From: an uncultured Verrucomicrobiae bacterium
Lineage (GTDB): Bacteria > Verrucomicrobiota > Verrucomicrobiia > Chthoniobacterales > JAFAMB01
Direction: 5' to 3'
NCBI GenBank assembly: GCA_963762565.1
Contig: CAVXLD010000005.1
Coordinates: forward strand, 96,001 to 160,000
Length of the DNA stretch: 64,000 nt
Under the pieces are notes generated by a model. That model had not been told where the DNA came from. It made no database searches and saw only the letters and a program-made list of their open reading frames with translations. Both the position numbers and the translations under genes were made by a program. This document shows, piece after piece, positions 52,550 to 64,000 of the stretch (positions are counted from its first letter, which is position 1; the number at the start of each line of letters is the position of its first letter).

Positions 52550-55339
52550 ATGGCTGAACCGATTGAATTCGAGCATTATCGGCTTCTGCAAAATGAAGAC
52601 GGCTCCCTCGTCGAACTCGGACGAGGCGCCATGGGTATCACCTACAAAGCATTCGATAAGAATCTGCGGTGTGACGTGGCTCTCAAGGTTATCTCGGATC
52701 GATTATTAGAGGATTCGACTGCGTCCGGCCGTTTTCTGAGGGAGGCACGAAGCGCGGCCAAGCTTCGGCATCGGAACGTGGCTTCGATATTTCACCTTGG
52801 TCAACATGGCTCGAGCTATTTCTACGCCATGGAATTCATCAACGGCGAAACGGTCTCAGAGAGGGTGAAACGGGAGGGGCCGCTTCCCTGTCTTTTTGCC
52901 CTGGAAATCGCACAGCAAGTGGCTTCCGCGTTAATCGCGGCGGAAGCCCAACACCTGGTTCATCGCGATATTAAGCCATCCAACCTGATGCTGGTCATGG
53001 AAGGTGACGGCGAAACTATTGTTAAAGTTATTGATTTTGGACTAGCCAAATCGATCCTGATCCAATCCAGCGCGGGGCTTACCTCGGCCGGGTTTGTCGG
53101 TACTCCCTACTTCGCGAGTCCAGAACAACTCGACCGGCAGGCTGAAGATATCCGATCGGATATTTACTCCTTGGGGGTGACGTTGTGGTTCATGCTAACC
53201 GGTAAACCGACGTTCGTGGGATCGATTGCCAGTGTGATCGCGCAGCATTTCGATCGCTCGCCGCCATTCGATGACTTGGCCATCCTGCCGCGCGAAGTCG
53301 TAACCGTGTTGCGACAAATGTTAGAGAAAGATCGAGAAAGCCGCGTCCAGACGCCAGTCGTGTTACGGGCGGAGTTGAAGGCTTGCATTGAAAAGCTTCA
53401 AAGACGCCAAGCACCGGAAGAATCATCCATCTCAGGGGATGTTAATTTTGAGACAATCGCAATAAGCGCCACTCCGCGGCCTGATTCCTTGCCGGCACCT
53501 GGTGAAATGGTTAAGGGACGTTACCGGCTGATCGAAGATCTGGACCCCGCGAATCCGCGACACACTTTTTACGGTGAAGACCAGAACACTGGGACCCGAG
53601 TCGGTCTACGGGTCTTTCGGGCGCCGGAACCGATTTTAAGTCAGCTTCAGGAGGAAGCGAAACGAATCCAGGCGGTCGCTCATCGCAATTTCCTAAAGGT
53701 GTTTACGGTTGAACAAGAGGGATCCTACTGTTTGGCTGTATACGAGTGGCTGGAGGGATTCGCCTTGTCCGATCTGCTGCGGGTGCGTCGAACGCTGACA
53801 TTGAGGGAGGTTTGCTTATTGCTCGGGCAGATCGCGCCGGCTGTGGATGCGGCGCTGGCTGCGGATCTCAGGCTCGAAGTGGGCCTCCGCCAGATCGTGG
53901 TTCATTTCCCGGACGGATTCGGTGAGCCATCAGAAGATATCGTCCTCCGGTGTCCGCTGGATGAATGGCCAGCGTTTGTCGTCAAGATGGACGCATTGGC
54001 GGGTGCCCATGAGCCGGGTGATACGGCGACAGGCGGCGAACCGGGAATCGGCGGAGCTTCACGGAATGAACAGGGTGTCATCCGGGTTGGTCTGCTGGTT
54101 TACGAGATTCTGGGCGGTAAACCGGGTGGGTTTACACCGCTTGCGAATGCGTCCGAGGATGAAAACCGGGTGCTGCGCCGGTGTTTAACACCAGGACAAA
54201 GCTTTGGGACGGCGATCGAATTTTACCAGGCATTGACGGCTCTCCCGGTTGAGCGGCCTGCGCTTCAAGCGGTACGAACCTCAAGTCCCGGCGCTGTTCC
54301 TGAGCAAGATCCCGCTGCTCAGACCTTAGCGGGAGGAACCGTTGGTAAAGGGCCTGCGAATGTTGGAACCGCGTCCGGCACTGCAGCCCGTAAACGAGCA
54401 TCCCACCCATGGATCTATCTTCTTTTAGCGGTGATCGGATGTGCCGGTTTAGGTTGGTGGCTCGTCTCCACGTCGCTAAAGCCGCCAGTTCAGCCTGCAA
54501 TCATCAAAGCGAAACCTACGGCGAAATCAGTTCCCGTGAGTCGAGCGCCACTGGTCGCCGGACAGCCGTGGTCGAACAGTCTCGATATGAAGTTCGTACC
54601 GATGGGCTTGATTCACTTTGCGGTTTGGCAAACGCGGGTGCACGATTTTGCCGCCTTTGTCGGAGCAACCGGCTATGACGCCACGGGAGGGATGTCATCC
54701 GTAGTGACACAGAACGGTTTCAAGCTGAATTCGCTCACTTGGAAGGAACCGGGATTTGTGCAGACGCCGGATGATCCTGTCGTCGGTATCAGCTGGGAAG
54801 ATGCTGGACAATTTTGTGATTGGTTAACTCGAAAGGAACGGGCAGAAGGGATCTTGTCCGCGTTTCAGCGATATCGTTTACCGACCGATGCTGAGTGGAG
54901 CTTAGCGGTCGGGTTAACGCGGGAAACCGGAGGTACTCCGGAGGAACGAAGCGGAGGCGTTAAGAACGTTTACCCTTGGGGAAATCGATTTCCTCCGGCA
55001 AACGATGTCAGTAACTATGCAGGCAGCGAATCGCGAACGGGCGCGCCGCAGGATTGGGCGGTTATAGCCGGCTATCATGATGCTTACCCTCGTACGGGTC
55101 CGGTAACTGCATTCGCGCCTAACCAGGAAGGAGTTTCTAGTTTGGGCGGTAACGTATGGGAATGGTGCGAAGACAAGTACAAAGCCGGTCTGAATTGGCG
55201 AACCTTGCGAGGGGGTTCGTGGGCGACGTCGCGGGCCGAGGAAACGCTCTCGTCTTATCGCAGGGGTTACGATCCTTATTTTCGCAGTGACGATGTCGGT
55301 TTTCGATGTGTTATCGCCTCCGACGGAGAACATGAATGA
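52550..55339 (+). CDS. Ser/Thr protein kinase + degenerate kinase-like domain + TM + FGE-sulfatase (SUMF1) domain
   Basis: LGRGAMG, VALK, HRDIKPSN, DFG, GTPYFASPE; second kinase-like segment without catalytic motifs; RLPTDAEW, GNVWEWC, RGGSW, VGFRC. Confidence 0.9.
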   Translation: MAEPIEFEHYRLLQNEDGSLVELGRGAMGITYKAFDKNLRCDVALKVISDRLLEDSTASGRFLREARSAAKLRHRNVASIFHLGQHGSSYFYAMEFINGETVSERVKREGPLPCLFALEIAQQVASALIAAEAQHLVHRDIKPSNLMLVMEGDGETIVKVIDFGLAKSILIQSSAGLTSAGFVGTPYFASPEQLDRQAEDIRSDIYSLGVTLWFMLTGKPTFVGSIASVIAQHFDRSPPFDDLAILPREVVTVLRQMLEKDRESRVQTPVVLRAELKACIEKLQRRQAPEESSISGDVNFETIAISATPRPDSLPAPGEMVKGRYRLIEDLDPANPRHTFYGEDQNTGTRVGLRVFRAPEPILSQLQEEAKRIQAVAHRNFLKVFTVEQEGSYCLAVYEWLEGFALSDLLRVRRTLTLREVCLLLGQIAPAVDAALAADLRLEVGLRQIVVHFPDGFGEPSEDIVLRCPLDEWPAFVVKMDALAGAHEPGDTATGGEPGIGGASRNEQGVIRVGLLVYEILGGKPGGFTPLANASEDENRVLRRCLTPGQSFGTAIEFYQALTALPVERPALQAVRTSSPGAVPEQDPAAQTLAGGTVGKGPANVGTASGTAARKRASHPWIYLLLAVIGCAGLGWWLVSTSLKPPVQPAIIKAKPTAKSVPVSRAPLVAGQPWSNSLDMKFVPMGLIHFAVWQTRVHDFAAFVGATGYDATGGMSSVVTQNGFKLNSLTWKEPGFVQTPDDPVVGISWEDAGQFCDWLTRKERAEGILSAFQRYRLPTDAEWSLAVGLTRETGGTPEERSGGVKNVYPWGNRFPPANDVSNYAGSESRTGAPQDWAVIAGYHDAYPRTGPVTAFAPNQEGVSSLGGNVWEWCEDKYKAGLNWRTLRGGSWATSRAEETLSSYRRGYDPYFRSDDVGFRCVIASDGEHE

Positions 55340-61145: not shown

Positions 61146-61358
61146 GAGGTGAGAAAACGTGATTGGTGACTAGTGATTGGTGATTGGTGGAGCGCGGGGG
61201 ATAGCGGGCCAAGTGGACTTTAGTGGACTTAGTGGACGCCGTGGACTGGAGTGGTCGGGAGTAGTAGGGACGGAGAGGATGATCTCCGGAGCAGGCGACG
61301 AATTTTAACGGCCGGATTCGTTTGAGCGTTTTGGTAACAGAGATGGTCTTTGTTCCAA

Positions 61359-62159: not shown

Positions 62160-62322
62160 CAGCGCGCTTCGCGAAATGGTCAATAGCCGATAGCCAATAG
62201 CCGAGGCGGCGGGCTAATGACACATGACAGATCGGAGGCCCGAGGAAGCATCGATCCTGTCGATTTTAATTTATCTTTTATCGATTTTATATATACGAGA
62301 GATTGGACGACGATCATCCGGT

Positions 62323-62751
62323 ATGAAAACAGAAGCGATCGGGCAGGGTGAGGGAGCAGAAGACCCCAGTTATCCAGAGCATCAGCATCTTCAACCCGCT
62401 AGCGCGAGTGCAATTCGCAAGCGGAGGTTTTGGGTTGTCCCGGTTTTGGCCGCTATTCCGACCCTGTTGGTGATCCTGCTTATTTTTCTTCTGAAGGATT
62501 ATGACTTTCCGAAGGAAGTCGTGGGTATTTTGTTCATTACCGTCGTGATACCCGCGGCGCTGATCTGCGAGAAGCTTGGGCTTGGGCAGTTTAATATTTT
62601 GGGGGGTAGCACGATCCCGGACTGGTTGTTTTACAGTGTCATGATTCTGCTGGTGTACCTCTATAGTTTGGCGTTGGTGGCGTCGGGACGGGGGATTGTG
62701 TCGTTGATGGGGCGAGCGCTGCGAGGGGGGCGAAAGGTGATTGGTGATTAG
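62323..62751 (+). CDS. hypothetical membrane protein (3 TM)
   Basis: Three hydrophobic segments; stop lies inside a GTGATTA array. Confidence 0.6.
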   Translation: MKTEAIGQGEGAEDPSYPEHQHLQPASASAIRKRRFWVVPVLAAIPTLLVILLIFLLKDYDFPKEVVGILFITVVIPAALICEKLGLGQFNILGGSTIPDWLFYSVMILLVYLYSLALVASGRGIVSLMGRALRGGRKVIGD

Positions 62752-62953
62752 TGATTAGTGATTAGTGATTGGTGATTAGTGATTGGTGGAAGAGAAGCTG
62801 TCCGTTCGGCGGCCTTCTCGGTCGGGTAACCGTCGGGGGTGTTTTCGCGAGGAGGGGGCAAATTTCGGTTAGTAATATTTTGCCAGGAGTTGTCCTGGTT
62901 TGGTTCTATTGTTCGTCGAGCGGGAGGAACTGAAATAACCGAGAGGTAAACAA

Positions 62954-63448
62954 ATGATTACATCGCCAAAGATCGTTGAACGCATTGAACAACCGTATGT
63001 GGCTATTAAATCAGTGGTGAAAATGGAGGAGATAGCACCAACGGCCGGGCAGCTGTTCGGGGAAGTTTTCGGGTGGTTAGGTGGGCGCGGTTTAACGCCG
63101 GCCGGAGCCCCGTTTTTCAAGTATAACGTTGTCGACATGGAACGCGGGCTCGAGATTGAGTTTGCGCTGCCGACGGCAGCGCCGGCGACTGGAGATGATC
63201 GGGTTTTAGCGGGTGTGCTTCCTGCAGGCCGGTATGCCTCATTGATGCACCTAGGCCCGTATGATCAGCTTAAGGACGCTAATGCGGCGCTTGGGGAATG
63301 GATCAAAGAGCAAGGGCTTACCGTCGACGTGGTGAAGAGCCCGGAAGGGGACAGATTTGGGTGCCGGTTGGAAATTTATCTTAATGATCCAGGGGTGGAG
63401 AAGGATCCAGCGAAGTGGGAGACGGAAGTGGCGTTTAAGCTCGCGTAA
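62954..63448 (+). CDS. GyrI-like small-molecule binding domain protein
   Basis: PAGAPFFKY; LPAGRYA...H.GPYD.L; EIYL.DP; SD gaggt upstream. Confidence 0.88.
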   Translation: MITSPKIVERIEQPYVAIKSVVKMEEIAPTAGQLFGEVFGWLGGRGLTPAGAPFFKYNVVDMERGLEIEFALPTAAPATGDDRVLAGVLPAGRYASLMHLGPYDQLKDANAALGEWIKEQGLTVDVVKSPEGDRFGCRLEIYLNDPGVEKDPAKWETEVAFKLA

Positions 63449-63468: not shown

Positions 63469-63902
63469 TTCACCACAGAGACACAGAGGACACCGAGAAA
63501 AGACTCGAACCGCAGATGGACGCAGATTTACGCAGATAAAGACAGGAGCCTGACTGAGGCAGGGGTTGAACGCACTCCTTCTGCCGGCAGCACATTGAGA
63601 TTTGGAATATCCGCAGATTACACAGATTACGCAGATTTCGCCTTTAGGCTTGGGCACGTCACTTTAGATAAAAAAAAGTTCTGACTCGGTTACGCTTTCG
63701 GTAGCCCAAGGACTGATCCGAAGCCCACGACGAAATCTGCGAAATCTGTGTAATCTGCGGATATTAACGTTTTCCAGAATGTTGCCAGCCCATGACGCGT
63801 CTCTCAACGTCAGCTGCGATCTGCTCCCAGTCTCCATCTGCGTAAATCTGCGTCCATCTGCGGTTGAGGTTTTCTCTGTGTTCTCTGTGTCTCTGTGGTG
63901 AA
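63469..63902. mobile_element. three concentric cassettes with microsatellite-built TIRs
   Basis: 63469-63501/63870-63902 (2 mismatches), 63508-63537/63836-63865 (perfect), 63606-63640/63731-63765 (1 mismatch). Confidence 0.9.
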
Positions 63903-64000
63903 ATAAGTCTTAATAGGCTTTGCCGAAGAGGACGCGGCGGGGGCTGGGGGCGCCGGTGAAGATGCATTTCCCTGGCGTCTCATCTTTGAAAGCAGGATCG

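Follow-up and report, generated by a model that had tools for sequence, protein, structure and literature searches.

How could three different pairs of inverted repeats come to enclose one another, each pair nearly perfect, within a single gap between two genes? This question is raised by 434 bp of non-coding DNA (positions 63469-63902, corresponding to G000:C5:159469-159902 in the genome studied, G000) at the end of the window, by which we mean the whole stretch of 64,000 nucleotides that was analysed. Three gene-less hairpin cassettes are stacked in this element, and their arms also bracket intact genes of the GxxExxY family (PF13366). Our best explanation, to which we give an even chance, is that interiors have been exchanged at the arms, driven by cognate GxxExxY nucleases whose role as the enzymes we infer.

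Upstream of the element lies a GyrI-like gene (62954..63448, plus strand; PF06445, E 1.2e-14), which is orthologous in the congeners G002, G003 and G004, and downstream the 3' end of the convergent gene proS (63910..64000, minus strand; TIGR00408, E 4.8e-145). Both genes are outside the element, which starts 21 nt past the stop of the GyrI-like gene and ends 7 nt short of the proS stop. The outermost arms, termed class A (63469..63501, plus strand, with three CAC(A/C)GAG words, and 63870..63902, minus strand), are 33 nt long with 2 mismatches. Inside them the class B arms (63508..63537, plus, and 63836..63865, minus) are built from CGCAGAT 10-mers and are identical at 30/30 positions, and the innermost class C arms (63606..63640, plus, and 63731..63765, minus) are built from CRCAGATTA 9-mers and show 1 mismatch over 35 nt. 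A short linker (63502..63507, plus) joins the left A and B arms, the B shell contains a non-coding left spacer (63538..63605, plus) and a right spacer (63766..63835, plus), and the C arms enclose a core of 90 nt (63641..63730, plus). Folded as single-stranded DNA, the 434 nt reach -141.6 kcal/mol (z -20.9), a value equalled by 0 of 100 shuffled sequences. The sequence-only reading of this locus had proposed three concentric arm pairs with exactly these mismatch counts and a hairpin of ~430 nt downstream of the GyrI-like gene, and both were borne out. Contigs from two soil runs (X1, record 4, and X3, record 17), either of which is possibly the source sample of the assembly, carry the core, the right C arm and the right spacer with zero differences, so that the assembled order and orientation hold and are no assembly artefact. 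The runs containing the stretch are nearly all soil metagenomes, and no RNA run is listed among them.

Elsewhere in the window we observed a GTGATT(G/A) heptamer array at 62737-62788 overlapping the end of the ORF 62224-62751; 8-mers of this type are several-fold over-represented in the genome, with similar short arrays at ~61160-61255 and 62176-62203. The ORF 52550-55339 encodes a 929-aa protein which we take to combine an N-terminal kinase-like region with a C-terminal formylglycine-generating-enzyme-like region.

Each of the three arm classes belongs to a genome-wide family. Position-weight scans for the arm classes across the genome yielded 79 arms of class A, 154 of class B and 165 of class C, which combine into 24, 44 and 64 pairs, respectively, and the reversed contig C1, used as control, gave 0 matches for all three classes versus 27, 60 and 37 on the real C1. 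The layers can thus be regarded as independent modules of three repeat classes, as had been supposed. Their order is nearly fixed: counting junctions of arms in the same direction as outer versus inner, A lies outside B in 17:0, B outside C in 32:1 and A outside C in 16:0 cases, although symmetric elements enter these numbers with both of their sides and one element is duplicated, so that the junctions are not fully independent. The order of E and B is looser (52:15), and 81 loci from the relatives, chosen without an arm match, gave 3:0 for B outside C, 10:1 for E outside B and no A junction. A stricter pattern scan found the complete A-B-C-C-B-A stack only at this locus, and A, B and C follow each other on one side at ~6 further sites; nesting is a pattern of the whole genome, of which this locus provides a clear example. 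Among the 44 B pairs, 10 are flanked by a single class on both sides, and the C-class cassettes held no other cassettes. The offset from the A to the B start is 36-39 nt in 12 of the 17 junctions, which equals one A arm plus the usual outer linker of B (the consensus of the outer B flank is A-rich followed by CCC). No A core therefore survives between A and B arms, and the linker at 63502..63507 represents the outer edge of the B layer.

Two near-identical A-B cassettes (G000:C1:1199797-1200042 and C1:1203067-1203314) lie 3.3 kb apart and are probably a local duplication. In this genome and its congeners a ~30-nt hairpin also occurs at a fixed place within B or C arms (L068:840-875, L071:480-505 and L081, that is G004:C509 at about 4745 and 4900), and in L081 it is symmetric in both arms.

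To which genes do these arms belong? The genome contains 14 PF13366 matches at 12 loci, and across the 40 GxxExxY loci of the genome and five relatives, arms of the same class were found on both sides in 28, including A, B and C versions; 8 of the 40 loci show none of the nine arm classes used. The classes A, B and C each bracket an intact GxxExxY gene in this genome or in a congener. The suggested connection of the element to GxxExxY cassettes is therefore correct for the arms, and it failed for the sequence between them. The frame following the middle left arm (DKDRSL...RFG) is present, and it had been read as resembling a GxxExxY N-terminus; its best score of -1.5 bits was equalled or beaten by 50 of 200 shuffled sequences, no Pfam match was obtained, and this locus is absent from the protein matches as well as from the nhmmer matches against GxxExxY genes. 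We thus rejected a GxxExxY relic in spacer or core as chance. Likewise the cores, which had appeared decayed, are non-coding sub-families and not decayed genes, since from 244 interiors only 8 bear a gene, one a clear and one a faint gene fragment. An F5-type GxxExxY fragment is located at C5:122416. A Y1 transposase was also rejected as partner, as none of the 12 Y1-transposase loci (PF01797) in the genome carries these arms within ~600 nt of the match. Two frameshifted GxxExxY genes (G000:C15:24328-24677 and C1:653061-653407) are still boxed by F and H arms.

Arm class follows the protein tree, from which the broken genes L010 and L011 were excluded, with 10 changes versus 26.9 in shuffled data, the D and I labels not being single clades. 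All 25 flank-sharing pairs consist of genes of one class, and same-class genes mostly share their flanks between congeners. As same-class genes thus mostly sit at the same chromosomal place, the clustering is largely orthology and reflects inheritance more than independent co-evolution. Although the genome has 154 B arms, B is the innermost arm of none of its genes, and the sole B-armed gene (L115 from G005) groups among E-type proteins; both findings argue against a strict rule of one enzyme for one arm. Looking across phyla, we found flanking inverted repeats at 55 of 76 GxxExxY genes versus 2 of 76 controls (4 of 80 loci with short flanks had been dropped), and most of these repeats are words in tandem with a generally similar shape. 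In this set of other phyla A arms accompany 3 of 11 A-like but 1 of 69 C-like proteins (p 0.007), and C arms 13 of 69 C-like and 0 of 11 A-like proteins, a difference that is not significant (p 0.20), most of the others carrying different words. Many C-like GxxExxY genes from many phyla (L147-L214) are boxed by tandem CACGAAG, which is outside the nine arm classes.

The GxxExxY protein models confidently as a PD-(D/E)XK nuclease fold, the model (pLDDT 94.7) showing a minimal core of this type. The residues D69, E79, K81, Q93 and Y97 are conserved in the alignment used with the structure (54 rows; L146 and L149, which have internal stops, and other unselected loci were left out), and Q93-x3-Y97 forms a motif that we take to be RecB-type. 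The best structural match was Cas4 SSO0001 (Z 8.2, rmsd 3.7, 99 aligned), with a restriction enzyme scoring equally, and Hjc resolvases scored below it (Z 6.5), so that a role of GxxExxY proteins as junction resolvases is no more than a possibility. A sequence search of the PDB gave only a weak match to T7 endonuclease I (E 0.28), and Foldseek returned no match at E 0.001 or better. In the part of PMC3424549 available the function of GxxExxY is given as 'Unknown', and our literature search found no activity for any GxxExxY protein.

In three of the five congeners (G002, G003 and G004) the same gap is present, and in all three (3/3) an A arm is found at the place of the outer left arm. G002 and G004 have kept both A arms, here around ~130 nt of unrelated interior without B or C arms, whereas G003 shows the A arm on the left together with a D arm, and another hairpin takes the place of the right A arm. 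The interiors of G002 and G004 are only 59% identical to each other, while the upstream gene reaches 81% and proS 90%. Since the A arms are shared and the contents are different, the A arms must be older at this gap than what they enclose at present.

Evidence for an exchange of parts comes from a paralog at G000:C7:619086-619460, which shares both B spacers and the C core with our locus and has an outer layer of E-type, not A. The left spacer matches the opposite strand of G000:C7:619353-619429 in 53 of 77 columns and the right spacer the opposite strand of G000:C7:619119-619191 in 49 of 75, both in the flipped sense only (z 9.3 and 8.0 versus 0.3 and 1.5). The core is most similar in the forward sense (69 of 103 columns, z 8.5; reverse z 3.7). 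The inner core is thus inverted relative to its shell between the two loci, a feature that was absent from the earlier reading. That reading would have been contradicted by a single fixed 434-bp element; instead the congeners have another interior and the paralog a different combination of parts. Contigs that are ~90-95% identical to the spacers and core (63518-63860) occur in the runs X1, X2, X5 and X9, in X1 at a depth similar to that of the exact copy, pointing to copies of the B-C unit in sister strains or unassembled DNA that are closer than the C7 paralog.

A second B-C family of 12 copies behaves similarly: 4 copies have the core the same way round, 3 have it flipped, 3 carry a Q-type spacer on both sides and 2 are partial; as outer layer they have A, E or G, or lack one altogether. 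The congener gaps at five sites of this family have other contents or nothing; one of these has retained the order E-B-C and a single spacer but contains a new core, one holds A arms instead and one, in G003, is empty. All 7 paired in-shell copies of this family share one core sub-family, which is absent from the other 37 short C cassettes, and the core sub-family of our locus, with 7 copies in the genome, occurs without this shell in 5 of them. Spacer-plus-core composites have therefore been copied between sites, under different outer layers and with the core either way round. A flip at one and the same site was not seen between relatives, where orthologous sites bore different cores. Of 76 joints in one set of runs, the 15 listed included no strand-changing one, and a second set gave no joints, both coming from assembled contigs only and being uninformative on live flipping; exact-pattern scans of metagenome contigs found nothing.

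Why are the arms so well preserved? At this locus they are the commonest variants of their families, and the first 26 nt of the left B arm represent the top variant (12 of 84 arms). In paired tests partner arms were not significantly closer to each other than to other arms of the family (p 0.12, 0.45 and 0.09), and a permutation test revealed a small partner excess per 26 nt in A (+0.6, p 0.009) and C (+0.34, p 0.02), with +0.2 (p 0.14) in B. Given this small excess, the near-perfect arms mostly reflect the family consensus. The idea that pairing is maintained within each element is therefore left with the small excess in A and C, and partners are closer than random family members by only 0.2-0.6 of 26 nt. 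Taken singly, A, B and C arms do not fold (0 to -0.1 kcal/mol, z +0.5 to +1.3) and are not palindromes.

The cores are different. Among the 44 short C pairs (20 of the 64 pairs, longer than 175 nt, were left out of the tallies of core length and orientation) 37 have a core of 89-94 nt, and many of these align near background. The core at this locus has no structure of its own (z -0.09), C cores in general have a mean z of 0.17, and when 11 related cassettes are folded as a consensus, only the arms pair and the core stays unpaired, with a covariation term of +0.29. A faint mirror symmetry can be seen between the right and the left spacer (score reached by 42 of 2000 shuffled sequences) and also in the core. 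A partner-specific mirror in the core was rejected, as the own half scored no better than halves from other copies (13.8 versus 15.3 for C; own better in 17 of 44). The sole Rfam match, a mir-981 hairpin at 27.5 bits, lies below the threshold of 51 and was discarded as a chance hairpin match.

To explain these data we propose that cuts and an exchange of strands at the arms brought in the interior and reversed the core, the GxxExxY nucleases likely being the enzymes. Within an arm, the three words repeated in tandem every 9-10 bp would be putative binding sites of the cognate nuclease, the gene of which would stay at one chromosomal place like RAYT genes. Repair of a cut at or near the arms, using another copy or the partner arm, would then swap or invert the interior or copy the cassette. 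As long as such an exchange takes place between like arms of the same orientation, an existing order of layers would be kept; how this order first arose lies outside the proposal. Such a model accounts for interiors replaced without leftovers, flipped cores, shells with mixed spacers, the layer order and the consensus arms.

It might also be possible that host processes alone have produced the element, with the arms promoting template switching and short-homology recombination and the GxxExxY genes being inert cargo. Template switching is known to invert the spacers of inverted repeats and to homogenise their arms (PMC8604942, in the part available), so that core flips would need no enzyme of their own, and the small excess between partner arms, the faint mirror symmetry of spacers and core as well as the abundance of B arms in a genome without a B-armed gene agree with it. 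Nevertheless we consider this explanation rather unlikely, because it leaves unexplained why the arms stay near their family consensus while the 90-nt cores drift to background, why related words enclose GxxExxY genes in different phyla and why the A words track A-like proteins.

Also unlikely, and slightly more so, is a series of MITE-like insertions, in which B would have inserted into an A cassette and C into B, at a preferred site and in either orientation, with the old cores being deleted later. The paired layers, the B pairs wrapped by one class on both sides, the C cassettes without any others inside, the core sub-family that mostly occurs without this shell and the gap that is empty in G003 agree with such insertions. 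Target duplications, however, were not detected for A, B or C when own flanks were compared with swapped ones (longest direct word 3.46 versus 3.70, 2.98 versus 3.17 and 3.64 versus 3.60, respectively; duplications of 2 bp would escape this comparison). Searches of this genome with nhmmer, and with BLAST of G001-G005, which are 78-95% complete and for which 70-nt queries at 65% identity are near the limit of BLAST, revealed neither an empty B shell nor a copy of spacers or core beyond the C7 paralog. In addition no A core is left, and the single core sub-family in all 7 copies of the second family fits one origin followed by flips better. From the proposed preferential insertion of cassettes into each other the nesting order therefore remains, and plain insertion becomes unlikely.

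Very improbable, finally, is an RNA or DNA structure kept by the host, for example a two-way terminator or stabiliser between the convergent gyrI-like and proS transcripts with mobility being secondary: the element fills the gap between two convergent stops, the A-rich outer flanks of the arms give T-rich tails past each right arm, the A arms persist in all congeners with the gap and the C cores are mostly of uniform length, but a consensus scan found neither a terminator-like site nor a promoter consensus, convergent genes show no excess of A, B and C pairs in the gaps between them (15/566 versus 9/530 divergent, p 0.31, and 68/1474 tandem, based on crude gene calls), and neither the unfolded cores nor the consensus fold with its arms-only pairing fits a conserved structure.

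With an exchange at the arms as the preferred explanation, the locus points to a likely substrate for a widespread protein family whose function is listed as unknown. Since three arm classes are united in one 434-bp piece and a flipped paralog exists naturally, the role of the family can be tested directly. If the enzymes drive the exchange, they would represent a second route to domesticated repeat systems of the RAYT kind, and pairs of enzyme and arm might be used for orthogonal inversion or cassette exchange. If they do not, the locus still shows that in a soil lineage the DNA between genes is replaced fast and in an ordered manner.

A description of this repeat family was not found in the literature that we searched, including the available part of PMC3733652, most subscription papers being outside the search. 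Several known systems are nevertheless similar in part. Bacterial MITEs such as the Correia elements of Neisseria are short and non-coding, have terminal inverted repeats of ~30 bp and share their ends with a gene-bearing element. Our cassettes resemble them in the terminal inverted repeats on a short non-coding unit, but they lack a target duplication, their partner gene encodes a predicted PD-(D/E)XK protein and not a DDE transposase, and their interiors do not represent remains of genes (one clear and one faint fragment in 244, apart from the 8 that bear a gene). In invertons a segment between inverted repeats occurs in both orientations, as is the case here; in contrast to them it is from one paralogous copy to another that the orientation varies, assembled contigs gave no sign of switching at a single locus and no recombinase gene is adjacent. 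The SDRs of cyanobacteria (Elhai et al. 2008, as cited in the available part of PMC4390886) are small modules at precise places inside other repeats. Compared by this description, our units differ in being paired-arm cassettes of 85-430 bp that are tied to a gene for a nuclease fold.

The closest parallel is found in REPINs, BIMEs and their RAYT enzymes. Here too the elements are extragenic and multi-copy, with conserved inverted arms around a variable spacer and several classes per genome. According to the parts available of the respective papers, the RAYT gene is boxed by its own arms and sits mostly at one site across relatives (PMC3116915; 10.1101/2021.07.10.451892), and TnpA-REP cleaves and recombines BIMEs (PMC3333891). 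GxxExxY genes are boxed and stay put across relatives in the same way, although the enzyme is not a RAYT: the linked gene encodes a protein of predicted PD-(D/E)XK fold and none of the Y1 loci is armed. Moreover, a REP arm is a short palindrome, whereas arms of the classes A, B and C consist of direct words in tandem without a hairpin of their own, and only here do the classes stack in a polar order with inner cores that flip. Tentatively, and with somewhat less than even confidence, we therefore suggest that GxxExxY proteins could be undescribed mobile-repeat enzymes spread across phyla, namely stay-at-home Cas4-like nucleases that would copy, swap and invert layered cassettes through their own triple-word arms, as an analogue of the REPIN/RAYT system with orthogonal pairs of enzyme and repeat.
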